Part shown: in pieces, positions 10,343-59,388 of the stretch
How the letters are laid out: each line of letters begins with the position of its first letter
Numbering within the stretch: position 1 is the stretch's first letter
Source: Eledone cirrhosa
Taxonomy: Eukaryota
Direction of reading: 5' to 3'
NCBI GenBank assembly: GCA_964016885.1
Contig: OZ024741.1
Span: forward strand, 196,354,001 to 196,418,000
DNA: 64,000 nt
Translations under genes and position numbers: made by a program
The notes under the pieces: model-generated
Told to the model about the DNA's origin: nothing
Seen by the model: the letters and a program-made list of their open reading frames with translations, nothing else
Database searches by the model: none

Positions 10343-13300
10343 CATCATCATCATCACCATCATCATTTTACGTCCGCTCTTCCCTGCTTGCAAGGGTGGG
10401 ACGGGTCTTATTCAGCACAGCATCTCTCCACTTGTCACGGTCCTTCGTCATCTCCACCGTGAGCTTCAGCGATCTGAGGTCTGTTCTCACCACCTCTGCC
10501 CATGTTTTTTCGTGGTCTACCTCTACCACGTCTTCCTTCAACTGGCATTTCCTGGCACTTCTTTACCCATCGGTCATCCTCCATGCGCATCACATGTCCA
10601 TACTACCTCAGTCTCCTCTCCCGTACACTACATTCTATCCGTCTCAGACACAGTTTCTCTCTCAACACATTCATGCTGGGTCGTTCACACACATTCAACG
10701 GAGCATGCTTGCCACATTTCTCTTCAGATGTCGCATATCCTCTGCAGCTGCTGCCCATGTCTCACTACCATGCAACATCGCGCTCCTCACACAGGCATCA
10801 TATAACCGGCCTTTCGTACACAAGGAGAAACCCTTCTTCGTCAGTAGAGGAAGCAGCTCACTAAACTTCTTCCAACCCGTCATTCTAGATACTATGGTCT
10901 CGGAACACTCCCCCTCCCATACTAATCTGATCTCCTAGGTACCGGAAGCTATCCACCACTTCTATAGCACCCACCTGCATTTGAAAAATGTGTCTCTCAA
11001 TGCGACTTCTACTGTCTAATTTCCCTGTACATCTACTGCATACATATTTCTCCCTACCTGTTAGTTTGCCTGCTATCCTGCTACATCTCTTGTGTACCCA
11101 GGATCTGCATTGTGTGCATTTTATAGAATTTATGCCAGTTCCTTTTCTGCATATCGAACATGGCCATTTCCCTAACTGAATCAGTTTTGTCCTCTTTTCT
11201 ACTCATCAACACTTTTGTCTTAGCTAGGTTCACTCTCAGTCCTCTTGCTTCCAACTGCTGTTTCCATAGCCAGAATTTATTCTCTAGCTCTTCTACTGAT
11301 TCTGCTATAAGAACCAGATCGTCAGCATAGAGAAGTTCCCATGGACAGCCAGTCTTAAACTCAACTGTTGTGGCTTGGAGGACTATAATGAACAAGAGCG
11401 GGCTGAGGACCGAACATTGATGTACTCCTACTTGTATCTGGAATTCCTCACTAAACTCCATTCCTACCCTGACTTTACTGACAGTACCTCTGTACAAAGT
11501 TTGCACTGTCCTCACAAGCCATTCCTCAACACCTAGTTTCCTTAGGGACCACCAGATGACAGATCGGGGTACCCTATCAAAGGCCTTCTCTAGGTCAACA
11601 AAGGCTAAATATAGTGGCTTATCTTTCTCTAAGAACCTCTCTTGCAATTGTCTCACCAAGAAGAGGGCATCTGTTGTACTCTTGTCAGGTACAAAACCAA
11701 ACTGCATCTCATCTAGTTTAACCCTTTCTCTAATTAGTTGTGCTAATATCCTTTCTGCCACTTTCATAACCTGATCCATCAGTTTTATACCCCTATAATT
11801 GCTCCTCTCCAGAGCATCCCCTTTACCTTTGTAACAATTTATGAGAATACTGCTGCACCAGTCTTTGGGTATGACACCACCATATATAGCCTGATTGATG
11901 ATGCGTGCAACCAGTTTAGTGCCTACGTCCCCTGATGCCTTCAGCATCTCAGCAACTATTCCCGATGGTCCAGCAGCCTTACCATTTTTCATTTCCTTAA
12001 TCACCTCTTGGACCCTATATTCGTCAATCTCAATAGCTGGTCCCTCTGTCGGATCTACTAAGGGTAATTTCTCTCTCTCCCATTCGTTCTCCACATTCAT
12101 CAGTCTCTCATAATGACATTTCCAGGCCTCCTTTTTCTGATCATTCGTGACACTAAGTACACCGGCATCATTCCAGACACATTTATCTCCAACAACATCC
12201 TGATTTGCATTGACACACTGCCTTGCAATGTGGAACACCACATGCCTCTAGATCTTCCCGTCGCAGAACATTGGCAAACCTCCTACTCTCAGCCTCCCTG
12301 CGTGCTAAGTACACCTGACGTCTAGCTTCTCTCTTAGCGGCTGTATATTCTTCCCTACTCCCCTCCTTTTTCCAAGCCTTCCATGCTAGTCTTTTGTCTT
12401 TAATGGCCTTATCTACTGTGCTGTTCCACCACCAGGTCACTCTCTGTCTGGTTGGAGCTCTGCTCCAGCCACAAGTTTCATCAGTAGCCTGCAGCAAGTT
12501 GTCACGTATACATCTTGAAGGGCTTTCCTAAATTTGTATGTTAGTGAAAGGTCTTTTAGCTTCCAGACCTTTCTTCTCCACACCTTCCTGTATGTCTCAT
12601 TCCATCTCTTGCTTACTGAGATATCACTAACGACTAACCTATGCTGTGGGGTACATTCTTCCCCAGGGTATGCCTTGATATTAGACACTATCTGCCTGTA
12701 CCACTGCCTAACTAGTAAGAAGTCAATCTGGCTTATGTGCTCGCCAGATTTGTAGGTTATTAGGTGATTGGCAGGTTTCTGGAAGTTTGTGTTGCAAATA
12801 GTCAGTGTACTTGCATCACAAAATTCAAGAAGTCTCACTCCTTTATTTCTTGAGCCGTAACCGTACCCACCATGTACCCCAGTGTAACCATCCTGGAGCT
12901 GTCCAACATGACCATTGAAGTCCCCTGCTAGCATAACGAGGTCTCCGTCCTTTGTCATTGCGGTTGTTTGTAAAAGTTGCTCGTAAAAGCAGTCTTTCTC
13001 ATCTTTACCTAGGCCTGCTTGGGGAGCATAGGCAGAGATGATTGTCAGTAGTCTCCTGCCTACAACTAATCTAAGCTTAATTATTCGATTATTAACTCGA
13101 ACTACTTCTATTGTCTTATTGATCCATCTCTCAGCCAGGAAAATACCTACTCCCCCTAACCCATCATCCTTACCTACCCAGAAAAGCTTATAGTTAAGAT
13201 GTTTGCCTGCGACTAGTCACGCAGAGGCACCTCTCCATCTCACCTCTTGCATGCAGCACACATCCACATGCCTTCTCTCCAGCATCTCCGCTATTTCAGT

Positions 13301-15199: not shown

Positions 15200-17476
15200 T
15201 AAAACATACCCAGCTTTAATGCTGAGCCACACGAAACTGCAACCTCTCTCAAGCTAAACTCGCCACCCTCTGCTTACTCCAAAGTCACGACGACATCATC
15301 ATCAAACCTGCACAAGGGGGATGCCATGGTTGTGTGGTGTGCCGACCTCTACACAATGGAAGTTCTATGACAGCTTCATAACCCTCCCCCTCTTCTGCCA
15401 TCTCCCCTCTAATCTCACACCTCAATACCAGCAACAAATATCCTCCACAGTACAACTTGTCACCTCTTCTCCCCTACCCTCCCAACTGCCACCAACCTCA
15501 TTATACACACACCACCACCATCTATTTCTTCTCTAAAATCCACAAACCCGATACCCCTGACCACCTGCAAATCCCCCACCAAACTCATCTCCACCCTCCC
15601 CTCCCACATATCTGACACCATCCACGCCCTCTGCCTTTTTAATTCCATCTTTCCACCTAGCCCAACCCCTCCTCTTCACCCTCAACATTAAATCCCTCTC
15701 CATGGTCATTCCCTACGCCAAAAAACCTATGTGCCCTCCAACATTTCCTCGACCTTCAACCACCTTGCCAAGCTGATCCTCACCCTCAACTGCTTTTCCT
15801 TCTCAAGTGAGTTCTACCAACAGGTAACTGGGGTGGCCAAGGGCCCCAACTATGCCAACCTAACTGCCGTCTACGTTGAGGCCCAAACCTTTTCCCAATG
15901 CACTGGCTCCATCCCCAAGTTATACAGCCATTATATCGACAACTGTATCAACACCACCTCACTCATCCGAGAACAGGTCGACTCCGTTCTCTCTTCCCTC
16001 TGCTCCTTCCACCCTCTCCATTCACTTCCTGGACATCTGTCTCCATCGACCCCGCCAACTGTTCCCTCATCACCCCCACCTTCTTTAAAACTACTGACTT
16101 CCACTCCCACCTCAATTTCACCTTATCCCACCCCACTCACTCCATCCCCTACTCCCAATTCCTCTACCCCTAAATCCATGACTGAGACTCAGGCCCATAA
16201 CATGGCTGGACACTTCACTCAGCAAGGTTACTCCCACTCCATGATCCACGCCGCTCTTACCCATGCCCGTAAAGTTGACTGCACCACCACCTTCATCCTC
16301 CCATTACCCCTTACCTACCACCCCTCCAACTCTTCTGCCGCCTCCAGTCAGACTCCTCTACTTCCATCTTTCCCCACTTCTTTAAAGCAGGCACACAACC
16401 TCCAAAACCTCCTCGTTTGCAACTCCCTTCCGTTCAACACATGCAATTACATCAACACCATCAATCTCTATGGGTCCAATGGCAACTCCTTCCAGGTCTG
16501 GGACTCCTTCCACTGCACCTCCTCCAGCAATGTCTATGGGCTCCGTTGCACACTATGCAGAGCTGTCTACATTGGACAGACTGGGTGTTGACTGGCAGAC
16601 CAGTTCTCTGAACATTTCTGAGACATCCAGCACAGCAACCGGTCCCCAGTTGTCAGACTTTTCTGCTCCACCCACAACCACACTGTTTGTTGCCTTATCT
16701 CGAGCTCTGGGGGCCCCTGACACATGCCTGAGACATGAGCAGTGTACTTTTTTTTTCCAGACCTGGACTGGAAATGGTTTAAATTCCCCACTCCTCTTCC
16801 TTTAGCCTTGCTCATCCCTCCCCACTACACCATCACATACTGCACCTCTTCTCTAACATATGCATGCACAAAAACCAACAAAACCAATTTATCCCATACA
16901 CTTCTAACCCCACCCTTGGCACTAATTAACTATTGGACTACACCACCCACCACTAATACTAAGTTCCAGCTACCTCTACACCCCTGCCGCTCTACCATAG
17001 ACACATTCAAACCACCTCACCAGTTAATACTAACAATCTATCTTTGCTCCCCACTCAGCACTGATGGACCATACCACCCATCACTACCTTCGGTCTACCT
17101 CCAAACCCGGCCGCTCTACTACTTCACAGCTAATACTGCTAACAATCTACCTTCAGTCACTACTACTCTACCACCAATACACACCTACCTACCCACAATT
17201 AATTACTAACCTCGTCTACTACTATATTCACCCCTGTACCACCAATACACACACACATGCTGCCACCACAGCTTAAAACACTTCTGTTCTGCATGCGCCA
17301 CCACCTAACCACTTTACTAACACTAACTCACTAAACGTATCTCTCTCTCTCTTGGACACCGGAATATACATGAATATTCAGATACACACACACACACAGA
17401 CATACCCATACATAAACACACATGTACACAAAATAATTCAACTACAGACAAAACAGAAAGTCACAAACACAGATAC

Positions 17477-21985: not shown

Positions 21986-23948
21986 TATTTTTTACATGCA
22001 AATTTCCTGTTTTCTATTCCAGAATAGAAATACTACAATGCTTCTTATTTATCTTTTCATTTCAACTTTAACTCTTTTACTCATGAATCATTATGTCCTA
22101 ATCGGTGATGATTTCTCACAAAAGAATATATAAATAAAACTGAATCTTACCGTCTTGATATTTTGTGATTTTGAAAGTATACAAATATTCATTTCTAAAT
22201 TAACGAAATAAAGCAGCATCAATATGATCATAACCTAACAAAATACGTTATAGTGTATATATGTGTGTGTGCGTACGTTTATATACAGGCATGGGAAATA
22301 GCTATTTTTAACACCCCTGAGCACCCCAGCCCCATCCATGCTTACTCCACTATCACTCCATAGTACTTATTCTCACCATCATTACACCCTCCCCCTTTAA
22401 AATACTGACACTCAAATCATAATCCCTTTGTTGCTGTCATTGCAGTACTCCACATACACACTATTGGAAGAAACCCCTCTCTTCAAGTCATTACCCTGTC
22501 AAATCCCACCACACTTGTCATACATACTTGCTTCTCCACCTCCCCCACCATACGATAAAGAAGACTTTTCAGCTGAGTCAAAGACCAACAACCCCTTAAG
22601 TGGTGTTGCTATGAAAAATGAACCCAATACGCCCTGTAAAGTGATTGGTAATAAGGAGGGCATCCTATTCTAGAAACCATGCCATGAGGACTTCATTTGT
22701 GCCATAGTCATGGCAACACTGTAAAGTGGTTGGTGATAGGAAGAGCATCCAGCCATAGAAAGTTTGCCAAACAAAGGTACAGTGGGACTCATTAGTTGTG
22801 TCAAAGGCATGACCTCCCTAATGCTGATACCATAATAAAATGCACTTGGTAGAGTGCAGAAGTGTATGTTAGGGAATCTAGGCACCTAACCCATCTGAGA
22901 CATCAGTAGTCTTGCTTGATTACAGATTTGTTAGCAGGGAAGATGGATGCTAAATGATCATGATGACAACGTTGATAATGAATATACATATATCACATTT
23001 TATATATATGTCATCATCATCATCATCGTTTAACATCCACTTCCCCTGTTAACAAGGGTTTCATGGGTCTACACAGATCAAGTCAGTACTAAAGTGAGGC
23101 TACTGACCTTCCAGACAGCCCGGTAGGGGACCTTCATCTCACTTATGTATGGTCTTATGTTCTATCGAGTACACAGGAGAGGTTGTCATGTCATATATAT
23201 TCATATACTTTTATATATATGAATAAACATTGTTATCTCGGATTGAGATGAAGCGAAATTATATTTGAATTCATAGAAAAATGAGAAAAGTTAACACTAG
23301 AATAACTGTTAAAACAGCTAAATGCTGTCAATGACAACGATGGGCAAAAATGACTCAGAGGACAGAGACCAGTGGCCAGTGGTCGGCAGAGAGACAATCC
23401 ACGAGATGGGTGACAGGCAGATGAAATATAGAAAAGATTGATGCATCTTATATATATACTATAAGCAAACCCACCATTGCTTGGGAAATAAAGCACTCAA
23501 TACCTAATTTTTTTATGAGAATCATAATTATTCTGTATAAATTTATTATTTCAAACATAATATTAATAGTGTTTGTAAAAGACGTATACTGTTCTTTTCT
23601 CCTTAAAAATTTACTTGCATTTCAATGACCCACTAAAAGGGACAGTCTAGCCAATGCATGATATATATCATGTTTATGTCACAAAAAAGCTCCTAGTCCA
23701 TGCTGTGAAGTGGTCATTTTGATGCCACAATAAAAAGGATCTAGTCCACGGTGTAAATGTGGTTGGCATTAGAAATGGCACCCAGCTGTAGAAACCAAAC
23801 CAGAAAAAGTTCTGTATGAGCAAGACAGTCATCTGATCTGACTTGTCTCACAACGAGATAACTCATCTAACCCATGGTAGCATGGAGAATGGACGTTAAA
23901 CAGTGATGATGGTGTTGAGGAGGAGGATGATAAATATGTATATATATA

Positions 23949-24329
23949 TACAATATTAAATAAATGGAAACTATATTTATAAAACCATATTTATTTCATT
24001 ATATATATTTCAGGGATATCATATTAACAATATGCTATGCCTTCCTCAGACAAAATACAATATAAACAGTTTTATAGATAAATAGATTTGACATACCATA
24101 ACAACATCGACATAAAACTGTTTATATTGTATTTTGTCTGAGGAAGGCATAGCATATTGTTAATATGATATCCCTGAAATATATATAATGAAATAAATAT
24201 GGTTTTATAAATATAGTTTCCATTTATTTATTTAATATTGTAAATATACTCCAAATACTTGTCGAGTGCTTTTATATCAGTTATAAATATTTACTAGTTG
24301 TAACCCAACAATTTAAATATAACTTTCCA
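23949..24329 (+). mobile_element. Fold-back insertion in (TA)n (PLE-type inverted pLTR) carrying hammerhead ribozymes
   Basis: Arms 23949-24075 and 24112-24242 (one 4-nt indel), 36-nt spacer, unique extension to 24329. Confidence 0.75.
24130..24195 (+). ncRNA. Minimal type I hammerhead ribozyme (mirror copy on minus strand ~23992-24057)
   Basis: Stem I tattttgt/atgaaata; CTGAGGA 24138-24144; stem II agg..catatt-gtt-aatatg..cct; GAAA 24176-24179; palindromic stem III; AUA cleavage after 24187. Confidence 0.7.
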
Positions 24330-24344
24330 TATATATATATATAT

Positions 24345-24741
24345 ATATATTGGTAAAAGGAAAAGAAAATGCTGACAAATTGTTCCCAGTGAAAAATAGT
24401 TTAATTAGGAATAAGTAAAAATTAGTAATAGTATTGGTTAGTATTCAGTTTTGTTTTAAGTTTTACCGGTTGCGCATTTCTAATGCTTTTCAAAAATAAT
24501 TTTGAGATAGAGCGCAGATTAGAGCAAACATCACGGGCGCTCTATCTCAAAATTATTTTTGAAAAGCATTAGAAATGCGCAACCGGTAAAACTTAAAACA
24601 AAACTGAATACTAACCAATACTATTACTAATTTTTACTTATTCCTAATTAAACTATTTTTCACTGGGAACAATTTGTCAGCATTTTCTTTTCCTTTTACC
24701 AATATATCATAACTCGTGTGTTACACCTCTATTCTTTTAAA
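24345..24741 (+). repeat. Second fold-back insertion in (TA)n
   Basis: ~171-bp arms 24345-24515 and 24537-24707, 21-nt spacer, unique extension 24708-24741. Confidence 0.85.
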
Positions 24742-25393: not shown

Positions 25394-25612
25394 TAGGGTG
25401 GTAGATTGACAGTATCGGTAGAGGGTCAGACGCCATGCTTTGACGCATAGAGTTACGGCCCTTGCCATTCAGAGTTCAAATCCCGCTGAGGTCAACTTTG
25501 CCTTTCACCCTTACGGGGTCGATAAAATAAACTACCAGTAATGCACTGGGTAATTACTGGCCTTGTGCCAAAAGTAGAAACAATTATTATTATTATTATT
25601 ATTATTATTATT
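25394..25612 (+). mobile_element. Meta-domain tRNA-derived SINE with (ATT)n tail
   Basis: gagttcaaatcc B box; caactttgcctttcacccttacggggtcgataaaat Meta-like core; ggccttgtgcc hairpin; (att)n tail. Confidence 0.8.
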
Positions 25613-25615
25613 GTT

Positions 25616-28512
25616 GTGGAAGTATACACGTCGTAGGAAATTTTGTTCCCGTAAGTTTGTGGTTTTGAACAGTTTTTATTGCAAACTTATTGTAAAAATT
25701 TATATTGTTTTGTGTTTAAACACACCTCACTTCTCTTCAGGTGGTCGAAATTAATCGGTATTTAGCCCTTCGGGGCTAAATTCCGATTTGAACTTTGCAT
25801 TTAGCAAATATGGCCACAAAAAAAAAAGAAAAGTGGCATCATTCAAAAAATCTGTTTCTCTACCATGTCTCCACACAAAAATTACTACTTCAGCAAGCTA
25901 TCCTTCTCTTCCTTGTCTTCCCTCACAACAATTTCCTTCTTCACCAAGCTATCAGCGTGGAGTCTCGCTTTCCTTTTCGTCTTCTTCATCGTCACATAGT
26001 GAAAGTCAGGTAAAGGCCATTTCATTCTCTTCTTCATCAAGCGGTGGTCGAGAAGCGGCTGCTGCTGATGCATTTGACAACAAAGGAGGTAGCATTAGCA
26101 GCGGCAGTATTAACAATAACACCAGTGGTAGTAGCAGCAGCAGCAGCAGCAATGCCAACAACACCGTTTGTAGCAGTAACAACAACATCAGCACCAACAA
26201 CAACAAGATCAGTAGCAGCAGTAGCGGCGACAACAATGATGCCACTGAAAAAGGGACCATCTCTTTTGCAAAGGTGGCTCGCAACGTAGTAACAGTCCTG
26301 ATCACAGAGGAAGAGATGGCGGTCGCAAGACACATGGTAACCAGAACTGAATTTTCAGTGTCCTTGAAACCACCAACCAACTTCCTGGAGGAGCAAGAGC
26401 GACGCACAGTGTCACACCGCACAATTGCCATGAAATCGCGTCGTGTGGAGAGAGCCTCAGAGGCCCAAATCCAGGAGGCCTTGAGAACTGTGTGAGCACG
26501 GAAAACCCACATCACCCGTGGCAAGAAATATGTAACTGTGGGCGTCCTTTTTGCTACCACCCAGGAAGCAAAATTGCATTCATTGAAAACCCTGTGGAGT
26601 GATGAAATAACGTTAGTCCCATTTTACTGCGGGAAAAAAATTGTTACGGTCAGGGTAACCCAGGTCTATGTACCCATGCCTTGGCTGGTCATGTCTGTTC
26701 TTGCGAGCATCGAGGATAGAACAACCATTCTGAAGTTGGGGAGAGAGGACTGATCCGGTCGTGGAATGGAGATGCTCATCCAAACCGACCAGGACTGCAT
26801 TAGCGCTATTCCCAACATAATAGACCTCGGGAATGGCTCCAACTTTCCATATCTGTGGAAGGAAGGCGCCCAAAGTGCTTCAACTGTGGATCGAAGTCTC
26901 ACCTCAGGGCCTTCTGCCCACAGAAAATAACAAAGGTCAAAGTCCCCCTCCTTCCAACACCGGAACCGTTGCCATCAGAAACAGAACAGTCAGCAAAAAA
27001 GTCAGGTGTTTCTACAGAGAGTAGGAGGACAACATCCGTGGCACCCACACCAAAGCCACGGACAACAAAAACAGCGGTGGCAACTGCAATAACAGAAACA
27101 GCTGCACTAGCTTCACCTGTGCCAAGAATGGCAGACCAGGCTCCACCACCACCAACAACAACAACAAAGACAAATGGGAGGGTAGAACTCATACCCCTCG
27201 CCGACCTCTCACAGTCGGACATGGAGTATGAGGCAGCTGAGGAGTGGAAAACGGTTGTCAACAAGAAGAACTAACACAAAAACACCACAGCTTCTCCCTC
27301 CAAAAGCGAAGGCAAAGAAAGAGGGGTAAAGGTTGCAAGGAGACTTGTAGCAACACCACCACCATCACCATCTCTACCACAAGCATCACCACCAACAATA
27401 ACCACACCACCCAACAGCAACAAAATCAACATCCCCCCAAAAAAGTACACAGCCATAAATATCGCACACAAAGGATTAATGGAACATATAAAACAACACC
27501 CCACCAACACCAAGAACATTACCCAAAAACATTACAATTGTCGAAATTAAACTGGAAGACTATAAACAATTAAAGCAAAAATTCCCTAACGCAGTTGGGG
27601 ATTTCAGGAGGTCACTCTCCAAAAGAATATATACAGATATCATCTTGGAGACACCCATGACCAGCCGAAGGGATAGTTCTACTGTCCCTTCCCCACATGA
27701 TCAAGGTAAGTGATCCTTTCTCCCTTACCCCGTTTCCTCATCCAGCATGGCCATACTTAGAATAGGCAGTATAAATGTACGTGGCCTGGGGTCATCTGGG
27801 ACAGCCGAGCCTGTCCGAGATGCATGCAGGGCGACGAATCCGTCCTGCATGCACTCGTTCGGTGCCCAAGGATTGCTGACTTATGGAGCTATGTCGAACA
27901 GCTGCTGTCACATGTAAGATCCAGTTATCGACTGAGTCCATTGTGCAGATAGCCCCGCCATCCTCCTTTAAAGAGGAGGAAGGGCAGGTAGTTGTCATCT
28001 GCCTTGTGGCCATGGCTTCAACCCTTTCAGCCTTGTCCACCACACAATCTCTTAAGATTTTGTGGTGGATAAGGCTGAAAGGGTTGAAGACAGACTTTCC
28101 TCTCCAGCCAATCCCTGATTAACTTTTTCAAGTTTCACTTGAAGAGGAAAATCAGGGTAGAGAGGCAAGTGCTGTCGTCTAGTAAGTTTGTTGAAAGGTG
28201 CGTGAAAGTGGCAAGTCTAGTTCGAGTGAACAGGCCCACTCTGAGTATGTGCCTGTAGAGTGAGGAGTGGGAAAACTGCGCTTGCCCTGGTGGCTGTGGT
28301 CTTTTGTGTGGGTTTCACCACGAGTGACCCTCGGAGGTTTCCCCCTTTTTGGGGAATTTTTGTTGTTTGAATTTTTTATTTCTATCTTGTTATAACCTTT
28401 TTTACACAGCCAAAACCCACTTTGTATCGTCCTGTATCGTTCTGTATCATCCGTAATGTTTTTCTTCATGTTAGCCCTTGTGGCCAATAAAGAAACCATT
28501 ATTATTATTATT
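25616..28512 (+). mobile_element. Tx1/L1-clade LINE copy A: disrupted ORF1, ORF2 almost wholly deleted
   Basis: ORF1 with CCHC knuckle KCFNCGSKSHLRAFC; ORF2 start MAILRIGSINVRGLGS (27748) joined at ~27798 to C-terminal CPRC...ESVLHALVRC zinc finger; aataaa + (att)n end. Confidence 0.85.
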
Positions 28513-31500
28513 GGCGACCTACGTAGGAAATCGTATTATCGTGAGCTCCACAAAGGTTTGTTGTTTTCAATTGTTTCAAATTGCCAGTTATGGAAAATTT
28601 TTGTTGTTAAGTGTTTATAAGTTCACATATATTGCTTTTTGAAAAGGACACTCAATAATATTGGGGCCTTGAGCCCAAAATTTAAACTTTATATTTATCA
28701 AACAAAAAATTTCTTTGAATAAAAAACATGGACGGCATTCAGCTACCAAAATCTGCTGACAGCTTTTTTAACAGATTAACATCTCCCACCATCACCATTG
28801 TAAACCTTGCTACGGTTGCCAACACTGAAAATATAAGTAATAGCAGTGGCAATTATTTAGATTTGTCACATACAGTCATGGATTTCCCACCATTACCAAT
28901 GTCTACAGGTGTTAAAACTGCGATCCCCATCACCACAATGTCAAAAAGACCAACCAACACCACTGATACCACCACCACCACCACCACCACAGCAACAACT
29001 GAAACAAAAAATAAATTATTATCTCGTGATATCGAAATGGATTCTCCGAAAATCGACTCTTCCAAGCCAAACGCCACTGACGCCACCACCACCACCACCA
29101 CCACAACTGAAACTAAAAATAATAATAACAAAAATAACAATAACAACAACAGCAACAATAAGAATAACAACAACATCAACACCAGCACAAAACCAAATGA
29201 GTCGTTTGCTAAAGCGGGAAACAAAAATGAAATGGCTGAGGTAAGCCAGGAAGAATTGAATGAAGCCAAGCAAATGGTAAAAAAATATGGTTACAGGATC
29301 AGCCTCACCCCCCACCCCCCATCTAATACCATGGAGCATCGGCGCCTATGCACCGTGTCATATCGCACGATAAACATTAGAACACGCCGAGTGGAACGGG
29401 CATCCGAGTCCCAGATACAAAAAGCTTTGGGACATGTGTGGGCGAAAAAAACCCACATCAGACGTGGGAAAAAATATGGAACCGTGAATATGTTCTTTTG
29501 AACCCCACAGGAAGCCAGAGAGCACTCCATGGCCCCATTAAAAAATAACGAGTTCACACTCGTCCCAAGCTATTGTGGTCAGAGGCTGGTAAGGATCAGG
29601 GTGATCCAGGTTCCGCCAGCCATTGAAATTCCCTGCCTAATGGCTGCCATCCTCGCCAACATCAAGGTCGACATAAAAGTAATTGAGGTGATAAAAATAA
29701 AGCAGGAGAACTGGTCCGGATCTGGGATGGAGCTCCTGATTTAAGCGGACCAAAAAAACATACAGGAAATTCCAGAGGTGATAGACCTCAATGACGGCAG
29801 CCATCTCCCCGTAATCGTTGAGGGTAGAAGGCCTAGGTGTGTCGTTTGTGGTGAAGGAACCCACATAAAGGCTTTCTGCCCTCAGGCTAAAAAGTTGAGG
29901 CCACCTCTCCTGCCCACCCCAGTGACTCAACTATCAAAACCAGCAGCAGAAATGGCAGCAACAACTGTAGCAGCAACAACAGAAGCAACTGTAGCAGCAA
30001 CAACCCCAGCAACTGTAGCAGCAACAGTAGCAAAACCAACACCACCACCACCCACCATGCCAGCATTAGCACCAGTGCCTCCACCATCCACCACGCCACA
30101 ACCAAAACCAACACCTGTGGAGGATTTTCCACTCTCTGACCTCTCGCAACTGGAGACAGATTGTGATGATGAGGAGGAGTGGGAAACTGTATCTGGAAAA
30201 AAGAAAGAAAAAAAGAAACTAAAAAGAAAAAATCCTCTTCCTTCGCCCTCCAAAAACAAAAGGTAGAAACAAACAAACTTACAAAAAAGTTAAGACAGCT
30301 ATGCCACCACCCACACCAGCATCACCAGCCCCATCACCACAAACTCCAACACCATCACCAGCATTAACCCCAACACCACCATCACCAACATCACAAAAAT
30401 CACCAACAAGTGTAACAGAAACAAACCCACAACAAATGCAAATAAAACAAAACAACCAAAACGACACACACTACACAGCATTAAATTTGAACAACAACCA
30501 ATTATTACACTGCATCCAACACAACACCGGCATCACAGAAAAATACTATACAACACCCCAATATTCACACTACTCCCACACATACAAATCACTCGCATCA
30601 CACAGAAAACATACACGACACTAAAATTAAAATTCCCCAAGGACATCGGAGACTTCCGACAAACAATGAGAAGGATGAAAAAAACCATCCTTCCCCCACA
30701 AGAAGTGAGGTAAGTGGTCTTTCCCATCTTTTTCCACTCCTTTTCATCATGACCTTACTTAGAATAGGCAGCATAAATGCGCGTGGCCTGGGGTCGTCAT
30801 GGAAGCAGGGCCACCTGCTGAACGACCTCAGGTAACTAAACATAGATGTGGTGGCCATCAGTGAGACCAGAATCTCCGAAGCACGAGCCTTCGCACCGAT
30901 CTTCGGCAGCTACGATGTATACGCATCTCCCAGCCATCCAGGATCAGGGTGGGGGCGAGTTGCTGTGCTTTTTTAGAGAGGCTTGGATCTCACCATACAG
31001 GCCATCTTCCTGGAACTAGAAGGTAAGTTGGTGGTGCTGGACGTGACCAATGGAGACAGGCAAGCTTTCAGGCTAGTGGCCATCTATGTCCCAACAGGAG
31101 CAGGGCAGCCTGATTTCTTCCGGCGTCTGGAGACCTTTCTTGGAATGTCCCGCTCTTTAATGTTAGTGGGTGACTGGAATGGGATCTTAGATGCACGCTA
31201 GGACTGTGTGGGATTAGCGAATAGGGGAGGAGGGTGTAAAAACCTTGCAAACCTGCTCAGACGGTTTCAACTGTCTGACAGGTACCGTCTGGATTTCCCG
31301 AATGTGCCAATATGGACATGGACAAACCGCATCGGGTCATCCAGATCATATCTAGATGTGGTGTTTTGTAGGGAAATAGATAGGACTAACATAGGCTGTC
31401 AACAATTCAAGATAGTCCACTACACGGACCACAAATTCGTGATCTGTGAGGTTGATTTAGATAGGCTTCATAGACAGGGACCCGGCTACTGGAAGCTAAA

Positions 31501-32663
31501 CGCGCCGTTAATAGCGCGCAAAGCCTACAGAGACCGGATTAGCGAACTAGTTAAGTGGGTGTTGACAGGGGCCATCGTCAACAACAAGTGGTGGTTTGCT
31601 CTGAAAAGAGCGATTAGAATAGAGTCCATTAGGTTTAGTAAGGCTTTAGCAATAGAGAAAAATAGAGCAGAGGGAGAACTAGTTAGAAAATTAGACGAGG
31701 CGCTTAGTAAAGGCATCGCAACCGACGTGCTTGCGGCGAAATTGGCCCTCGACCAATTCTTCAATGCAAAGCACGAAGGCTGCATTGTCAGAGCTAGGGT
31801 GTGTGCTCTCAGACATGAGGGGATGAAAGGCGTTCAATGGGCCCAAGTGGCGGAGGTGCGTCGTGGAAACAAAGCTCCGATCCAGTCTTTGGTAGACCAC
31901 GACGGGCGCATGCTACTCAATCTCAGGCAAATGTGTGAAGCTTTTCAGGGACATTTCGCTCTGTTGTTCCGGGGCAGCGGTGCGCTGGATCATGGGATGG
32001 ACTTTAGTGCCTACCTCGACGGACTGCCGTGGCTCTCGGCCACTGAGACGGAGTGTTGCGAAAAGCCGATAACAGCCGCTGAAGTACGGGAGGCAATGGC
32101 TGGCTGCACAAGGGGTAAATCACCTGCTTTGGATGGTCTGCCCTACGAACTTTAGGTACACATGCCAGACTTGTTCGGAGACCTCTTGGCGGATGTCTAC
32201 TGCAACTGGCAACAGAACAGGAGAATTCCCAGCTGAGGAGCGGTGGCACTGCTGAGAAAGAATCCAAACAAGGGGGATAACAGATAATTTCAGGCCCATA
32301 ACTCTGCTAAACACAGAGTTCAAGATTTTGACCAAGATTTTGTCGAAAGATGGGTGTGAGAGGCAAGCATGGCCCGAATGAATGGGCCTGTAAATTGAAG
32401 GTGGAAAACTGGGAGAGGGCACTTGCCCTGGTGGTCAGGGTCACCGTGGCTTTTTTAATGGGCTTTCTCCACGAATGTCCCTCGGAAGTCTCCCCCATTG
32501 AGGAATTTTTCATTGTTTCTTTTATTGTTACAACCTCTGTTTTTGTTTTTGTTACACGCAGAAATGCCCATTTGTACCATCCTGTACTGTCCTTAATGTT
32601 TTACTTTGTATCAACCCTTGTGGTTAATAAAGAAAGCATTATTATTATTATTATTATTATTAT
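28513..32663 (+). mobile_element. Tx1/L1-clade LINE copy B: disrupted ORF1, APE and linker, RT core deleted
   Basis: ORF1 28728-~30713 with CVVCGEGTHIKAFC; ORF2 MTLLRIGSINARGL, VGDWN, WTW..SRSYLD, YTDH, GPGYWKLN, KSPALDGLP, NFRPITLLNTEFKILTKIL then jump to the C-terminus at ~32342; (att)n tail. Confidence 0.9.
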
Positions 32664-32710
32664 TGGTGTTTTTGTTGTTGCTGTTGTTGTTGTTGTTGTT
32701 ATTATTATTA

Positions 32711-32943
32711 TGGGCAGTGGATTGGCAGTATCAGTAGAGGGTCAGACGCGATGCTTTGCAAGCATAGAGTTACGGTCCTTTACAGTCTGAGTTCAAATCT
32801 TGCCGAGGTTAACTTTGCCTTTCATCTTTACGGGGTTGAGAAAATAAAGTACCAGTAATGCACTGTGGTTGATTTAATTGACTTTCCCTTCCCCTTCAAA
32901 TTGCTGGCCTTGTGCCTAAAGTAGAAACAATTATTACTATTAT
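32711..32943 (+). mobile_element. Meta-domain SINE
   Basis: Same family as 25394-25612. Confidence 0.8.
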
Positions 32944-34340: not shown

Positions 34341-34349
34341 ATACTGTCG

Positions 34350-34759
34350 CTCTTCACTCCCTATATGACAACACTGCAGAGAGAGAAACAATGTATATGA
34401 TCAAATGGAGCGTTCCGTATATTCCCCCTCTCTATAATTTAACTGCTTTACTCTCTCTGTCACTCTTCACTCCCTATATGACAACACTGCAGAGAGAGAA
34501 ACAATGTATATGATCAAATGGAGCGTTCCGTATATTCCCCCTCTCTATAATTTAACTGCTTTACTCTCTCTGTCACTCTTCACTCCCTATATGACAACAC
34601 TGCAGAGAGAGAAACAATGTATATGATAAAATGGAGAGTTCCGTATATTCCCCCTCTCTATAATTTAACTGCTTTACTCTCTCTGTCACTCTTCACTCCC
34701 TATATGACAACACTGCAGAGAGAGAAACAATGTATATGATCAAATGGAGCGTTCCGTAT
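34350..34759. repeat. Tandem minisatellite, ~114-bp unit x ~3.6
   Basis: ctcttcactccctatatgacaacactgcagagagag... repeats starting ~34350, 34464, 34576, 34689; near-identical units. Confidence 0.9.
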
Positions 34760-35422: not shown

Positions 35423-35617
35423 AATAATTGTTTCTACGTTTGGCACAAGGCCAGCAATTACCCAGTGCATTACTGGTACTTTATTTAATCGACCCCGTAA
35501 GGATGAAAGGCAAAGTTAACCTGGGCGGGATTTGAACTCAGAATGGCAAGGACCGTAACTCTATACGTCCAAAGCATGGCATCTGACCCTCTACCAATAC
35601 TGCCAATCCACCGCCCT
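35423..35617 (-). mobile_element. Meta-domain SINE
   Basis: Reverse complement of the 25394 family. Confidence 0.8.
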
Positions 35618-37929
35618 AATAATGTAAATGCTAAAGGGTTAACTACTGTTTATGCCTGATCTGGTGTCTTCACATCCTCATTACTGAGTGTCAGTGACCA
35701 TAGATAATTGCACCAATGCTCATCTACATTATGCTATATGTCCATGATTCTCATTGGGAAAAAGTGACACCGGTAGGTCCTGAATCCTCATCTGACCATT
35801 ATTTGGAAGCTGGCTACTGAGTCACAGCTTATCTGCCTTCATCCCAAGGATGAAGCTGTTGGCCACTTGAAATGTTGTCACCAAGGTGACTAAGGAGTAC
35901 CATTTACCCCAGTTTTGAAATCAGAGTGACCTTTCTGCTAGACAGACTACCAACCTAGCCTAATAAGTTCTATCTACTTGTTATTTTATTACACAGTACA
36001 GGATGTCCATTGACTTTCCTGAGTTTATCTGCCCTGACAGGTTTTATTTTTTATTCTGTAGAGTGTCCAAAAATCACCCTTCTTACCAAACAAGTCTGGG
36101 AAGGCTAATAGTTTAGTCGCTGATGACCTGACCATATGATAGGTGGTATGTTACCTGTAGCAATTGAGAGCAACCTGATATAGCAGCTAATGCTACCACC
36201 CTCCAAATTTGTTTCCTCGTAACTTTGTTAATAATACATATTTTTCATAGATTTTACAGAGATACATTTTCTAAGTTGTAGATCATCATTGTACTGATGA
36301 AACTGAAATTATTTTTTAGAATTGCTGTGTACAGGAAGGGGATTAATGGAAGTTACAGAGAGTATGAGAAACACTATCTTCTGTCCTTTAGTTCATCATC
36401 ACCAACATACAGATGATATACAGATGGTATAGACTGTTCTGGATTGTGAAAGATTCAGTTTTAGCATTGGTAGGAGATGAGCATGTTAGCAACAGGGAGC
36501 TATGAAGAATTGATGTTGTTGAGCAAGATTACTTTGAAGAGAGGTGAAGAGAGGTATATGTCCTCATATAAGGTTAAAGAGTTGGTGATGATTTTGAAGA
36601 GTAAAAGAGCAAACGCACTTGGAGGTATAAGAGGGAAATTTTAGCTGAGCCAGAGCAGCTGAAATCTTTGTTGCTGATATCCAGGTGAGGGAGATAAGTA
36701 GTGGAAAGAGTGGAGAAGTCTACATATGTTTAGGCACAATCTTTCAGAATGAAATTGGAGTAAAGAGTGTAAACTGACTAGCAGAGATTGATCCAAGATA
36801 GAGTTGCAAAATTTGTGGGATTTGCATATGAATAAGAAGGGATGTATAGGGTCTAAGCTGGAACAAATTTCACAGATATTAGAGAAGAGGAAGGAGAATA
36901 GTTCACTGGAGTCAATTCTGACTTTTAGCATCTTGGGTGGAGGAATAATAGATGAAGAAATGTCAAAATATTATGAAAATCCCCAACCAAGAACCTGGTC
37001 CAAATACTTGCAACTGAACAAAACGGAGCAGTTGGTGGTGTTAAATCAAGCAGTATGCTGTGCCTACCACCCCCACCCCCCAAATGGAGCAGGATAACTA
37101 CACCATAAATAACAACTATTTTAGAAGAATGTGGACCAAGAGGCAAGCAACAAGTATATAGAGTTCCATTTGTGTTTTACAAGTAACAACATAACAGTTT
37201 CCTCATTAGAGAGGCAGGGGCAGAGAATGGTCAGAGAGTAGGAGAGGTTGGTTGGGGAAGGAAGAAAGGAGAGTTGGGGGAAGAAAGTGGGAGAGAGAGA
37301 TTTCTTGTTTGAATTCACTTGCTATGTAACTGTCGCTGGTTCTTCCATTCATTGCCTCTTTTGTTACCATATTTCTCATGAGAAATACTCTTTCAATTAA
37401 TTAATGCGAAAAAGTTTGAATGATTTACTAAAATTATTAATTATTTCATTACTAATATAATAACTTAGTATATAGTTTTTATATAAAATTATGTTGGGAA
37501 ATTTATTTAAATAAGAACCCTTTAAAGTATATGGTTCTGTTTCATAGAACCAGAGTCAGTTTCAGATGGTTTTGGTAATGAAAGGGTTAAATAAAACCTC
37601 TAATCTACGAAACCAGTTTGTTTTGATTATGGGTAGATTAGATCACGAAATGTCTTCCATATATAATCTCAGGGTGTAGCTATTCATCTAATTTGGGTCA
37701 TTAAAAAAATACCACTTATAAGTATTGTTGTAGCTTATGTTTGACAATTAAAACAAAATAAGAATTGAAGTATCATTTTTCTTATTTCGAACCATAAAGC
37801 CAAGGTTACCCTAATTCTTGTTTTATTTTAAATGTCATACTTTTAAGTCATAAGAAAACTTACAAGGTGTTTTTTTTTTAACAATCTAAATTGGTTATAT
37901 ATATATAAGTTAATGCTCGTTTCCCCCTC

Positions 37930-39369: not shown

Positions 39370-41530
39370 GTATGCATGTTTGCTTGCAATGGTATTATTA
39401 AAAATGTATTTACTAAACTTCTGTGATGTTGTTGGGGTAAGTGTATCCGTGATGATGATGGTGTACTTTCCCTCGCTGATGCTGAAAAGAAGGTAGCATG
39501 GAAGTGCCACTATGAAAGACTATTAAATGAAGAGAATGAATGGGATGAAGATAGTTTGCCCCAAGTTGACCCAACAGAGGGCTGGCTGTACAAGTTAGTA
39601 GTAGTATAGTAAGCAAGGCAATCAAGGATATGAAGACAGGCAAGGCAGCTGGACCTTTGGGGATAGTTGGTGAGATGCTGAAAGCATCTTGGATAGTGGG
39701 ACTCACCATAGTCACCCATATAGTAAACCAAGTAATACAAAATGGGGTCATACCCAATAACTGGCGTAGCAGCACCACCGTCAACTGCTACAAGGGCAAA
39801 GTACATGCTCTAGACAGAGAAAACTATAGAGGCACTAAGTTGGTTGACCAGATCATGAAGGTCACTGAATAAGTTATCGCACAGCTGATTAGTGACCGAA
39901 TTAACCTTGATGAAATGCAGTTTGGATTTGTGCCAGGTAAAAGTACCACAGATGCTCTCTTTCTCATGAAGCAACTGCAGAAGTACCTTGCTAAAAGTAA
40001 AACCCTCTACTTAGCTTTGGTTGACTTGGACAAAGCCTTTGACAGAGACCCCTGTTCCATTATCTGGAGGGCCCTTAGAAAACTAGGAGTAGATGAGTGG
40101 CTCATGAAAGTTATACACACCATGTATAGAGGAACAGTCAGCAATGTTAGAATTAACAATGACTATAGTGAAGAATTTAGTGTTCAGGTAGGTGTTCATT
40201 AGGGCTCCACGATTAGCCCTCTCCTGTTTTTTATTGCCTGTTATAACAGAGGAGTTTAAGACTGGCTGCCCATGGGAACTTCTATGTTCAGATAATCTAA
40301 CCCTCATAGCAGAACCTATGGCAGAACTAGAGAAGAAATTTCAAACCTGGATGTATGACCTAGAATCAATAGGTTTTAAAGTTAACTTGTTAAAGATTAA
40401 TGTTCTAGTATGTAGAAAGGAAAACAGGGCCTATATTCCCTTTGGGAAATGGCCTTGCTCAGTGTGCAGGAAAGCAAATGCAAGCTATGGGTACTTAAAA
40501 GATGTAGTGGTATCACAGGCAGGCTATCAAAGAATGCAGGGTTTATATGCAGCCAATGCTCAAGTGCAGTAAGTAGCAAGTGCCCACAGGATACTAGCTC
40601 TTTCAAATGCCCAGATGGTTCTATAGAAATAGTCGATACTTCCCAATACCTGGGTGATGAAATCAGCAGTGGAGTACAGTGGCTAGAGTAAGAACAGGAT
40701 GGAGACAGTTCAGAGAGTTACTACTGCTACTAGCTACAAAAGATTTTTCCTTCAAAATGAAGAGCAGATTGTATGATGCAGGTATACAGACAACGATGTT
40801 ACATGGTAGTGGGACCTTTGTCTGTGTGCAGAGGACCTGTGAAGACTGGAAACAAATGAAGCATGCACGCTCTATTGGATGTGTAATAGTAATATATATG
40901 AACAGCAAAGTGTAAATGAACTGAGAGAGAAATTAGGAATAAGAGGGATTAGATGCAGTATGCTAAAGAAGAGATTGCAATGGTGTGGTTATGTGATGTA
41001 TGATATATGAGGGACGACAGCTGGATAAAAAGGTGCAGGACATCAAAATTGATGGAAGCTATGGAGTAGGAAGACCCAGGAAGACGTGAGACAAGGTGAT
41101 AAAAGCTTACCTTGTGCAATTGCACCTCTCAAAGACAATGATACAGGACCAAGATCTTTGGCATTATGCAGTAATACAGAAGACACACCTTCCTATGTGC
41201 AGACTCAACATACATCTAGTAGGCACCTCTTAACCACTACAACCCCACCCTTCCAATTTTGTCCACACCACCTTCACACTGTAAACAAAATGTATCCAGC
41301 CTACACTGTAAAGTGGTTGTATAGGTGTCATCACAAAAAGCACCTAGCCCACACTGTAAATGTGGTTGATGTTAGGAAGGGCATCCAGCTGTAGAAACTT
41401 AACCAGAAACAGTTCTAAATGAGCAAGAGACAGTCACTTGACCCGACTTGCCTCTAATGGGACAACCTGTCTAACTCATGCTAGCATGGAAAATGGATGT
41501 TAAACAATGATGATAATGATGACAATGATA
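39370..41530 (+). mobile_element. Degenerate 5'-truncated RTE LINE
   Basis: MKTGKAAGP, MQFGFVPGKSTTDA, KTGCPWELL fragments; 3' UTR and (gat)n-like tail at 41508-41529. Confidence 0.9.
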
Positions 41531-41822: not shown

Positions 41823-43530
41823 TCATCATCATCATCACCGTTTTACATCCGTTCTCCATGCTAGCATTGGTGAGACGGGTTATCCTGTTGTGGGCAGTGT
41901 CTGGTTGGCTGACCATGCCTTGCTCATACAGGAACTGATTTTGGCTTGATTTCTACAGCTGGATGCCCTTCCTAACACCAGCCTCATTTACAGTGAGTGG
42001 TGGGTGCTTTTTTCCGTGGCGCCTACACATCCACTTTACAGTGTGGGCTGAGTGCTTTTTTGCCGTGGCACCTCCACGACCACTTTGCAGTGGAAGGGTG
42101 TGGGGGCATATTGTCTATATGCTTCATGGGAGGTCGGGTACTCTGTATTACTGCGTGATGCCAGAGGTCACGGTCGTGTGTCATCACCTTTGAGAGGTGT
42201 AATTGGGTAAGGTCGGCTTTTATCACCTCATTCCAGGTCTTCTTGGCTCTCCCCACTCCGCGGTTTCCATTGACTTCTAGTGCTCTGCACCTTTTTATGC
42301 AGCTGTCATCCTTCATACGCATCACATGTCCATACCAACGCAACCGCCTCTCCTGCACACAGCATTTGATTCCTCTTATGCTCAGTCTCTCTCTCAATTC
42401 ATTTATGCTTTGCTGTTCGCGTATATTACTATTACACATCCATCGGAGCATGCAGGCTTCGTTTCTTTCTAATCTACATAAGTCTTCCACTTTCAGCACC
42501 CAGGTCTCACTACCATGTAACATTGCTGTTCGGATACACGCATCATACAGTCTGCCTTTCATTTTGAGGGAGAAGCCTTTTTCAGCTAGCTGAACTTCTT
42601 CCATCCCGTTCTTACCCTAGTTATTGTACTTTCTGAACACCCACCTCCACTGCTAATTCAGTCACCTAGGTAGCAGAAGCTGTCTACTGTTTCTACAGAG
42701 CCCTCCCAGAGATTGGTGGTACTTGTTTCCTGTGGCTGTTTGTTGCTTGCTGTCCCAGCACAGCTGCTACATATTAAGCCTACATTCTTAATTAAGCTTC
42801 CTGAGATCCCGTTACATCTCTTGTGTACCCCATTGTTTGCATTTGGGGCAGAGAATGGAGTTCCTACCTACACCTTTCCTACATACTGAGCAAGGCCATT
42901 TCCCTGAGGGGATCTGTGTTCTGTTTTCTCGTCTACTTACAAGGACCTTAGTCTTTGTCAGGTTGACTTTGAGACCCTTTCTTTCTAGTCCCTGCTTCCA
43001 AGTTTGGAATTTCTTCTCTAGTTCTACCATAGATTCAGCTATACGTGCGAGGTCATCTGCATACAGGAGTTCCCCTGGGCATCCAGTCTTAAACTCCTCC
43101 GTTATTGCCTGCAGGACTATGATGAACAGGAGAGGGCTAAGAACAGAGTCCTGGTGGACACCAACCTGTACACTAAATTCCTTGCTATACTCATTGCTAA
43201 TCCTAACTTTGCTGACTGCTCCCCTATACATGACTTGTACAGCTTTCACAAGCCATTCATCTACTCCTAGTTTTCTAAGAGCCCACCAGATTATAGCACG
43301 TGGAACTCTGTCAAAGGCTTTCTTGAGATCGACGAATGCCAGGTAGAGTGGCTTACTTTTAGCTAGGTACTTTTCCTGTAACTGCCTCACAAGGAAGAAG
43401 GCATCAGTGGTGCCTCTTCCTGGTACAAACCCAAATTGCATCTCATCTAGTTTCACCTGGTCCCTAATCAACTGTGCTATAACTCTTTCTGTTACTTTCA
43501 TGACCTGGTCCATCAGCTTTATACCTCTGT
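41823..43530 (-). mobile_element. 5'-truncated RTE LINE (RT + C-terminus)
   Basis: ORFs 42812-43513 (FVDLKKAFDRV, LLYADDL) and 42023-42604; (CAT)n tail. Confidence 0.92.
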
Positions 43531-44029
43531 GTATAGTGGCTATATTTTATTGTAGCACTGAAACAGGGAAGGGTGTTGTACACTTGACACAACTGAAGGG
43601 TCCTTTCAACCTTTTGTTTGATAAGTTTTCAATGACTTGATGCCCTAAATGTCAATTACTCAACAAAATATAAAGGGTGCATTTTTGGTGGTACCAACAC
43701 TAGAGATGTTGTCATGTCCATGATTTGACTGAAAACTCCTCTCAACAATGAGTCATGTCAAATTCTTTCAGCACTAAAACAACACAGGCACTACTCATAT
43801 CCAAAATCATCATTGCATCTTACCCTCCTTAAGCATGAGCAACATATATCTATCCCTTGTGATCACTTTATTCAAAGGAAACATTGTTGCTCCTCACTCC
43901 CTTTAAGAATGAGTACACAACTAGAACCCTAATGATCATTCCAAATACTAGACCTCACAATCACCAAGCATCTCTCATGGAAAACACATGTTCCCAGTAT
44001 AGCTAGGGGTGCATTCCAATGGAAAGCCC

Positions 44030-48300: not shown

Positions 48301-49480
48301 TAAAAGTCACGTCAATGTAGAACTTTGCTCCTCTGTTCAAGCTATAGTATATATAATTAAGTACTTTAATAAAGGTACCGATGCTGATGTTCAATATAAT
48401 GAAGTTAATAACTTTGTAACAGGATGTTATCTCAATAGTAATGAGGCTGCATGGAAAAATCTTTGAATTTCTGCGATACCCAGCTGTTCAGCAATCGGAT
48501 ACACATTTAGAAAATGGCCAAAGAATATACTTTACCAGTAATAATATTGAACAAAGAATTAGAAATCCCCAAAATACTATTTTAATTTCAATCTTCAAAT
48601 TGAACGAAAATGATGAACATGCAAGAAGTTTCTTATATAAGGAAATTCCATCTCATTATACCCTTACTTCCAATAAAACATGGAAAAGAAGACTGAATGG
48701 TAGATTTGTGCAAACATGTTCTAGAATTTACACTGTACCACCTAATCAAATAGAATGTTGTTGTCTCAGATTATTGCTGAACGTAGTTAGAGGTCCAAAA
48801 CCTTTCAGAGACGTAAAAACACATATAATACATTTAGAGAAGCATGTTTGGCAAAGGGATTATTAGAAGATGACAATAATCTAAAACTAGCATTTAGAGA
48901 AACTGTTTCTACCAAACTGCCATGTCAGATGAGATACTTATTTGCAATAATTCTAATTCATTGCAATCCTTCTAATGAAGAATTTAAACAACCAATGTCA
49001 GTTGATAATTAAATCGATTGACAAACAATCAACAAGAAAAAGTAAATGAAGAAATATTATACAGTGAACTTTTACACAAACTTAAAACTATTTTTTATGA
49101 AATATTTATGAAGAACTAGAAGTAAACAATATTGAAACAGTAAATGAACAATTAGAATGACCCAGGTGGAACTGGAAAAACATTTTGTATCAATCTTTTA
49201 CTGGGAAACAATAAAATGAATAGTTATATTAATATAGCTGTTGCTTCTTCAGGAATAACAGCAACTTTAATAGATAATGAAAAAACAGTACATTCAATGT
49301 TTAAATTAACATTTTCATCATCAATACTTGATGAATTCACAACATCAGTTAGAAAAAATAGTCGAATAATCATAGAAAATTGTAATTTATTAGTATGGGA
49401 TAAGGTTACAATGTTAGATGAAAAGATTTTAGAGGCTGTTGATAAAGCATTGTAAGGGATTAAAAAGAATAATTTACCCT

Positions 49481-50924: not shown

Positions 50925-51100
50925 TGACAATCACTAGAGGATTGGATGTCATTCTTTGCAGTATAGAGTCACGGCCCTTTGCAGTCTGAGTTCAAATCTT
51001 GCCAAGGTTAACTTTACCATTCAGCCTTATGAGATCGATAAAATAAAGCACCAGTAATGCACTGGTATAATTGCTGGCCTTGTGCCAAAAGTAGAAACAA
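50925..51100 (+). mobile_element. Meta-domain SINE (degenerate head)
   Basis: gagttcaaatc, gtcgataaaataa-like core, ggccttgtgccaaaagtagaaacaa end. Confidence 0.7.
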
Positions 51101-59070: not shown

Positions 59071-59388
59071 ATATATATACACTCACACATGTATGTGTTT
59101 GTGTGTCTGTTTACGCTTACACAGCACGCTTAACATCCTGTTTGTTTATATTCTGTAACAGGTTTCATCGACTGACATCAATCTTAGTTATGGAAGGATA
59201 TGAAAGATATAATCGAAAATGTAAATATGTATTTGTATAGATATACTTTTTTATTATCACAAAAAAATATCATCATTATTACTTTTCCATGAATACAATG
59301 TTTACAGAATGAAAATATAGACGCAAATAATATATCTATATATACAATACTTAATGAATAATTCTTACAAGATAGAAATATAAACACA

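Follow-up and report, generated by a model that had tools for sequence, protein, structure and literature searches.

Which long interspersed element (LINE) copies the short interspersed element (SINE) that recurs throughout a 64,000-nucleotide (nt) stretch of the Eledone cirrhosa genome? The stretch, called the window here, covers positions 196,354,001 to 196,418,000 of the forward strand of contig OZ024741.1 (GenBank assembly GCA_964016885.1), and positions below count from its first letter. An initial annotation, made from the letters alone, had proposed that a Tx1 LINE and a Meta-domain SINE are partners, both ending in a CUUGU hairpin exactly 16 nt before an (ATT)n tail. Our analysis identifies, with high confidence, a LINE of the Tx1 lineage as the partner of this SINE. 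That the LINE protein recognizes the hairpin is a weaker claim, which we hold to be probable by analogy with known systems.

In the window, the two elements form a head-to-tail train on the + strand: SINE, (ATT)10, LINE copy A, (ATT)5, LINE copy B, an ATT/GTT run, and SINE. The first SINE (25395 to 25582) is a short form of 188 nt with a B-box-like motif (25474 to 25482) and a central segment without a named domain. It is followed by (ATT)10 (25583 to 25612), which is both the SINE end and the target of copy A (25613 to 28497). Copy A has a broken open reading frame 1 (ORF1) with a zinc knuckle present, and its ORF2 has an internal loss of ∼2.9 kb with the junction near 27800. The (ATT)5 run (28498 to 28512) separates it from copy B (28513 to 32637), where ORF1 is also broken and ORF2 residues 1 to 535, 86% identical to a young intact family of the same LINE, precede a loss of ∼1.75 kb (junction near 32337). 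Both copies are dead and internally deleted. Behind copy B come (ATT)9 and a degenerate (GTT/ATT)n run (32638 to 32711) and then a long-form SINE (32712 to 32929) with ∼30 additional nt ahead of its hairpin.

All four ends have the same 5-nt loop, followed by exactly 16 nt and then ATT. The CTTGT loops previously placed in the first SINE (25562 to 25566), copy A (28477 to 28481), and copy B (32617 to 32621) are where they were said to be, and the second SINE (32909 to 32913) has one likewise. The stem is 4 bp in the first SINE (hairpin at 25558 to 25570) and copy B (32613 to 32625) and 3 bp in the second SINE and copy A (28474 to 28484), the last being the predicted apex of a longer stem. The description of the stems as different yet always paired holds insofar as pairing stems are present throughout; it overstates the case for copy A, which has an A-C mismatch beyond its three pairs, and for many SINE copies (including the one with its loop at 32909), in which the stem is just 3 bp. 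Similarly, the 16-nt distance is exact at the four ends of the train but is 15 nt in a SINE copy at 59412 and 17 nt in two LINE families discussed below. A scan for the loop type, a stem of at least three pairs, and an A-rich word behind it covered the window and 600 kb sampled at round coordinates. Of 70 matches, 66 were assigned, by reading, to SINE (58) or Tx1 (8) ends. Compared with dinucleotide shuffles, the likeness of SINE ends to Tx1 ends was above chance (P < 0.05) in 28 of 40 comparisons, and that to CR1, R4, and RTE ends was above chance in 0 of 25. The shared hairpin end exceeds chance.

The elements also share a target and an insertion footprint. We searched for duplications with a free start position in SINE, Tx1, CR1, R4, and RTE copies and in those of family D, a sister Tx1 family. 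Exact, nonrepeat duplications of at least 10 nt (10 to 19 nt) flank 24 of 82 SINE copies (control mean, 0.8); 20 of them start immediately behind the element, and 18 have ATTAT as their first bases. Within the window, two 5′-truncated SINEs on the + strand (60611 to 60710 and 56931 to 57014) each have an 18-nt duplication beginning at ATT, and the copy at 59388 to 59580 (− strand) has a target duplication as well. Truncated Tx1 copies gave duplications at 8 of 67 ends, a total that includes alignment breaks other than true 5′ ends (control, 0.3), and five of these begin at the first ATT and span 12 to 17 nt. A comparison of duplications and targets, proposed in the initial annotation, therefore shows the SINE and truncated Tx1 to be alike, with duplications beginning at the first ATT. 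When one mismatch was permitted, 66 of 75 SINE duplications left no surplus ATT unit, so (ATT)n as an added tail is mostly rejected: what had been called the tail is mostly target sequence or its duplication. In this set, the three bases ahead of the site are mostly A, pyrimidine, pyrimidine.

Full-length young LINE copies also follow this preference: of 30 examined, 29 had a detected 5′ end, all 29 were preceded by at least two ATT units and 28 by at least three, and many lie in the tail of an earlier copy. A SINE stands behind an ATT-type Tx1 tail on the same strand at 25 of 111 loci and on the opposite strand at none. The corresponding values are 0 of 30 and 1 for tails of the (CTAT)n family and 3 of 29 and 1 for CR1 tails. 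Genome-wide, four TAT units stand behind 14,939 SINE ends and three TATC units behind 25 (raw counts, uncorrected for repeat abundance). Because the SINE and Tx1 insert into (ATT)n, trains of Tx1, SINE, CR1, and R4 occur at (ATT)n/(TAA)n runs in this genome. Separately, we observed an oppositely oriented Dong/R4 3′ end behind 11 of the 30 young Tx1 copies, with an (ATT)n/(TAA)n run common to both elements. As the SINE and the LINE lineage have the same hairpin-plus-spacer end and the same footprint, the SINE was likely copied by that lineage.

Other LINEs of this genome could be considered for the same role, as CR1 ends in (ATT)n on the same strand as the SINE and R4 families, which end in (TAA)n or (ATAC)n, occupy the same repeats; RTE ends in (GAT)n. 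CR1 is a real control because of its identical tail, and it yielded 1 duplication in 26 copies (at offset 34) and 0 of 26 at the junction; it adds several ATT units and lacks the 10- to 19-nt duplication. R4 gave 0 of 15, with 10 pure-repeat matches, and its tails have the opposite polarity. The ends of both differ from the SINE end (0 of 20 comparisons at P < 0.05). The idea that (ATT)n-tailed CR1 or (TAA)n-tailed Dong/R4 families mobilize the SINE is thus already largely refuted, and we regard it as very improbable. RTE gave 0 of 31, a weak count because the 400-nt reference cannot place 5′ ends. With 3′ ends unlike that of the SINE and, for CR1 and R4, no SINE-type duplications, all three were rejected as partners. 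A young CR1 family has its (ATT)n after a different small hairpin and shows no long target duplication.

An unseen or extinct LINE of another clade (L2 or I/Nimb) might instead have mobilized the SINE, the likeness to Tx1 being convergence. One bivalve element with an L2 tail, BivaCORE-SINE2, likewise has an (ATT)n end, and by eye there is a faint resemblance between its last bases and one long-form SINE variant (PMC4824008). Reverse transcriptase (RT) types were scanned in 1.9 Mb of the 3-Gb genome, mostly chosen around Tx1, SINE, and CR1 matches, which leaves room for such an element; among the 16 RT clusters of that sample, none was recognized as L2- or I-like by its motifs. The SINE footprint is the same as that of Tx1, and its duplications of 10 to 19 nt fit the L1 range of 7 to 18 bp (cited in PMC6007223), unlike the 5 bp of ZfL2-1 (PMC4245944). 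We therefore consider a partner from another clade improbable. A closer donor LINE family with the SINE-type stem may exist. Overall, the partnership put forward in the initial annotation is well supported by the common duplication signature, the same-strand nesting, and the failure of CR1, R4, and RTE ends.

To which group does the LINE belong? A protein search scored 125 places in the 3.0-Gb genome, 106 of them within open frames of at least 1,100 amino acids (aa). One intact young copy encodes an ORF1 of 698 aa with a CCHC knuckle and an ORF2 of 1,138 aa with endonuclease, RT, and zf-RVT domains. This two-ORF layout, with an apurinic/apyrimidinic endonuclease, RT, and a C-terminal zinc finger in ORF2, is that of the L1/Tx1 group. 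Human L1 ORF2p is the best solved relative of ORF2 (E = 6e-50; R2, E = 8e-22), and in an RT tree of 47 rows (1 of 48 was left out), a 99/99 branch parts the LINE from R4, CR1, and RTE rows of its own genome. The LINE belongs to the L1/Tx1 group. Its closest named match is an Argonauta hians protein (74% identity over the RT region); in a separate homology search of other organisms, the closest relatives were 38 to 44% identical, and a search for ORF1 homologs gave no match. A CX2CX4HX4C motif is visible in the ORF1 translations, without a Pfam match, and a CCHC zinc knuckle in ORF1 is a feature of Tx1. For Tx1, target specificity has been taken as more than 20% of flanks with one common sequence (PMC4494074); here, ATT units precede every young copy whose 5′ end was detected (29 of 29). 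Target specificity and the zinc knuckle make the Tx1 clade proper likely. The label Tx1 in the initial annotation thus stands as far as L1/Tx1-group membership goes (ORF2 domains, RT tree, and human L1 match), while its choice of Tx1 over the L1 clade went beyond what was shown. L1-Tx1, Dong-R4, CR1, and RTE are the main recently active LINEs in an annotation of O. vulgaris (PMC13282606), and L1-Tx1 is named as expanded in coleoids (PMC8967140).

In the young family, 34 other copies are 96.9 to 99.4% identical to the reference, and older copies of the A/B type are 80 to 93% identical to the window copies. Some near-identical 6-kb LINE copies form head-to-tail arrays of five to six, and recurring spacers suggest later duplication besides reinsertion. 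One copy has ORF1 and much of ORF2 in a single open frame (− strand, 1609 aa).

The hairpin extends beyond the two families of the window. Approximately 10 Tx1 families were found behind ORF2 C termini, with ORF2 ends 52 to 100% identical to the young family. Families A, B/Y, C, and J end in (ATT)n, and families D, E, F, G, H, and K end in (CTAT)n-type repeats. Five families have a single-letter variant of the loop, and C and J have a 17-nt spacer. For covariation, we aligned 16 rows (12 LINE and 4 SINE; one natural copy per family or variant), leaving out three further variants. The closing pair is an invariant C-G; pair 2 is C-G in the LINEs and G-C in the SINE; pair 3 is G-C, A-U, or G-U; and pair 4 is U-A, A-U, G-C, or unpaired (7 of 16 rows). 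Three of the four pairs change on both sides in these family-level rows, 87.5% of cells are paired (reached by 0 of 500 shuffles), covariation is likewise above all 500, and RNAalifold predicts the three inner pairs. Stem covariation, suggested at the outset as a check, is therefore found across families.

The sister Tx1 families that combine this hairpin with (CTAT)n-type ends also use such repeats as insertion sites. For one of them, family D, at least 40 copies agree in every base of the final 256 nt. Its 11 truncated copies gave seven matches via simple repeats and three other duplications beginning with D's own repeat. Several short contigs pass from the ORF2 end directly to the hairpin, as expected if sister families retain just the hairpin of the 3′ untranslated region. 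Among metagenome relatives (70 loci, mostly 22 to 33% identical), 24 were inspected, several of them lacking a 3′ end, and none had such a hairpin end. In contigs of two other organisms, a single complete piece was recovered, and no stem variant was informative.

How the hairpin behaves in RNA bears on its role. In LINE ends, the three inner pairs have predicted probabilities of at least 0.74 in 10 of 11 ends folded with 26 nt of upstream sequence and in 9 of 11 with 60 nt. The LINE-end hairpin is often the apex of a longer predicted stem covering the polyadenylation hexamer, which the SINE lacks. In full-length SINE RNA, the hairpin is disfavored because upstream pairings compete; it is possible there but is not the favored predicted fold. 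These predictions lend themselves to another explanation, namely that the same Tx1 lineage mobilizes the SINE by AUU-to-target pairing alone (a relaxed mode, like poly(A) for mammalian L1), with the hairpin either left over from the capture of a LINE end or functioning in LINE 3′-end processing. The crocodilian SINEU, assigned to Tx1-Mar without tail homology (PMC4494074), would be a precedent. However, both sides of pair 2 have changed in the SINE in a way that retains stem pairing (loss of an entire pair would be an equivalent account), and CR1 RNA also ends in AUU repeats yet gave 0 of 26 Tx1-type duplications at the junction, although cis preference could explain the latter. We consider mobilization by AUU pairing alone possible but rather doubtful.

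Several observations weigh against a hairpin-based partnership as a whole. The likeness between SINE and Tx1 ends is confined to ∼30 nt (14 to 19 of 29 positions identical), with none further upstream, and the window SINE fails to outscore shuffles when compared with copy B (P = 0.22) or with the young family (P = 0.27). Just 8 of the 67 Tx1 ends (alignment breaks included) gave a duplication, and two of these look spurious. Full-length young LINEs lie in long (ATT)n runs, and SINEs and truncated LINEs lie at short (ATTAT) sites. The rows and the structure of the covariation set were chosen by us and the rows are related; of five measures, two that count pairs were not above shuffles (191 and 69 of 500). 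Hairpin probability exceeds 0.5 in 3 of 49 full-length SINE copies (median, 0.025). Finally, no SINE copy below 2.8% divergence was seen, despite the young LINE family being ∼99% identical.

On balance, we favor copying of the SINE by the ORF2 protein of (ATT)n-type families in this L1/Tx1-group lineage, which probably binds the hairpin. The shared end, the ATT-starting duplications of 10 to 19 nt, the same-strand nesting, and the covariation are observed, and the binding, nicking, and priming steps are modeled on L1, L2, and RTE. The endonuclease would cut, as in L1, at a pyrimidine-purine step, nicking the strand that faces a site beginning with ATTAT. ORF2p would hold the RNA via the hairpin, and reverse transcription would be primed by annealing of the first AUU units, 16 to 17 nt behind the loop, to the released DNA end. 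A second nick 10 to 19 nt away would then produce the duplication. Priming on the first AUU units would leave almost no extra tail, making the (ATT)n run mainly target. Earlier insertions would serve as targets for later ones, hence the SINE-Tx1-Tx1-SINE train in the window.

A more speculative extension, to which we give little weight, is a two-part 3′ module in which the hairpin grips ORF2p and, like a ruler, sets the priming site 16 to 17 nt behind the loop, and a swappable repeat helps choose the DNA target by pairing. Sister families might then have kept the hairpin and exchanged (ATT)n for (CTAT)n as repeat and as target at the same time. If such a module exists, altering the RNA repeat would re-aim insertion, and a stringent, non-poly(A) L1-group animal system would drive a dominant SINE.

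The SINE itself gave 104 matches in the 600 kb, a few from a sister family with another 3′ end. It covers 13.7 kb of the 600-kb sample (∼2.3% of the sampled DNA), which extrapolates to a few hundred thousand copies genome-wide. It has the properties of a SINE, being short, dispersed, 5′ truncated, present at high copy number, and flanked by target duplications. Divergence from the commonest letters has a median of 6.1% (range, 2.8 to 11.5%; 38 copies). The SINE peak thus appears older than the young LINE family and fits the older A/B-type copies, with which its divergence roughly overlaps. A B-box-like motif is present and an A-box pattern is unmatched; ARAGORN and Rfam called no tRNA gene and no RNA family on the SINE. 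The B-box-like motif, as the sole hint, suggests a tRNA origin. The Meta-domain of the initial annotation is not supported. MetaSINEs have a 66-bp Meta-domain directly behind a tRNA-derived head, and the family bodies of BivaMeta-SINE1 and BivaMD-SINE1 (used instead of the Meta consensus figure) show no likeness to the SINE by eye in the supplement of PMC4824008. Four words from the SINE body or a variant are absent from that supplement as available, and its CORE and V bodies do not match the SINE body either. The SINE may coincide with the octopus SINEs OK, OR1, or OR2, known here from citations.

Further SINE copies lie at 35423 to 35619 (− strand) and 50925 to 51100 (+ strand), and a head-to-tail pair lies at 60891 to 61241 (− strand). 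A second SINE family (e.g., 5280 to 5517, − strand) has a central segment in common with the main SINE and a different head and 3′ part. Long inverted repeats occupy 24345 to 24707 and 23938 to 24249 (arms of 171 nt, 100% complementary and 21 nt apart, and arms of 138 nt, 93%). RTE-type LINE fragments with (GAT)n ends occur at 11081 to 13216 (− strand), 39600 to 41500, 42000 to 43546, 49504 to 50870, and 54249 to 55900. Other features, at 47774 to 48866, 15692 to 16591, 56043 to 56558, and 34344 to 34759, include a Helitron helicase fragment (Pfam match), fragments that we take, from their motifs, to be Penelope-like and restriction-like-endonuclease retroelements, and a 113-bp tandem array.

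How does this pair relate to known systems? Tail-sharing SINE/LINE pairs with stem-loops are already known as a kind, and the Eledone pair shows the common 3′ sequence and the covarying stem-loop of a stringent pair, although the stretch is short and the likeness modest. We found no description of this pairing in the open literature searched, nor anything on it in the available parts of PMC5786205, PMC3531059, and PMC7245038; Repbase, Dfam, the 1994 octopus SINE paper, SINEBase, and the repeat library of PMC13282606 may hold the elements. The partners named for mollusc SINEs are CR1, CR1-Zenon, L2, and Nimb (PMC4824008, PMC4758252, and PMC11481361). Our results name a likely partner for a SINE covering ∼2.3% of the sampled DNA. 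They are also relevant to whether the L1 group began with stringent RNA recognition, as this is an animal lineage of the L1/Tx1 group that lacks poly(A) and combines a conserved 3′ hairpin with a tail-sharing SINE. The question can be addressed in this genome because it contains intact young LINE copies as well as sister families that differ in target.

MetaSINEs (PMC4824008) resemble the Eledone SINE as short repeats of the RNA polymerase III type, and the central segment of the latter is common to a second SINE family of its genome. They differ in that the BivaMeta and BivaMD bodies are unlike it by eye and the reported Meta partners are Nimb and CR1-Zenon (PMC11481361). The eel UnaL2/UnaSINE and the RTE/Au-like SINE pairs share a stringent-type 3′ stem-loop with a short repeat, and the duplication opens with bases that match this 3′ repeat (PMC3747384 and PMC6007223). 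Those pairs involve other LINE clades, and recognition has been shown experimentally for UnaL2, while in Eledone it is inferred. Microsatellite insertion is also known for Kibi, Koshi, and the crocodilian (TTCC)n- and (TTTC)n-targeting Tx1 families (PMC4494074), whose targets, compared by description, differ from (ATT)n and, in sister families, (CTAT)n.

The sole Tx1-SINE link in the literature searched, crocodilian SINEU with Tx1-Mar, was made through common target preference and tandem insertion, not a common tail (PMC4494074). Unlike the Eledone pair, which shares a 3′ module, SINEU elements have small nuclear RNA heads and end in poly(A), and a LINE resembling SINEU-1 in its 3′ half was not found. 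The closest parallels come from plants and a green alga. As of 2012, only three L1-type-tailed SINEs had been counted (PMC3472496), and the pairs that this paper and PMC3747384 name belong to these organisms. In maize and sorghum (LINE1-1_ZM, monocot 1a, with ZmSINE2/3) and in Chlamydomonas (L1-1_CR with SINEX-3_CR), an L1-group LINE and a SINE have in common a short 3′ hairpin whose loop and flank are conserved and whose stems vary in a compensating manner (PMC3472496 and PMC3747384), as in the octopod pair. The shared stretch is 50 to 80 nt in the plant and algal pairs and ∼30 nt in the octopod pair. Moreover, poly(A) ends are reported for the algal pair and for nearly all L1s of flowering plants, whereas the octopod pair is from an animal, lacks poly(A), and has a microsatellite target.

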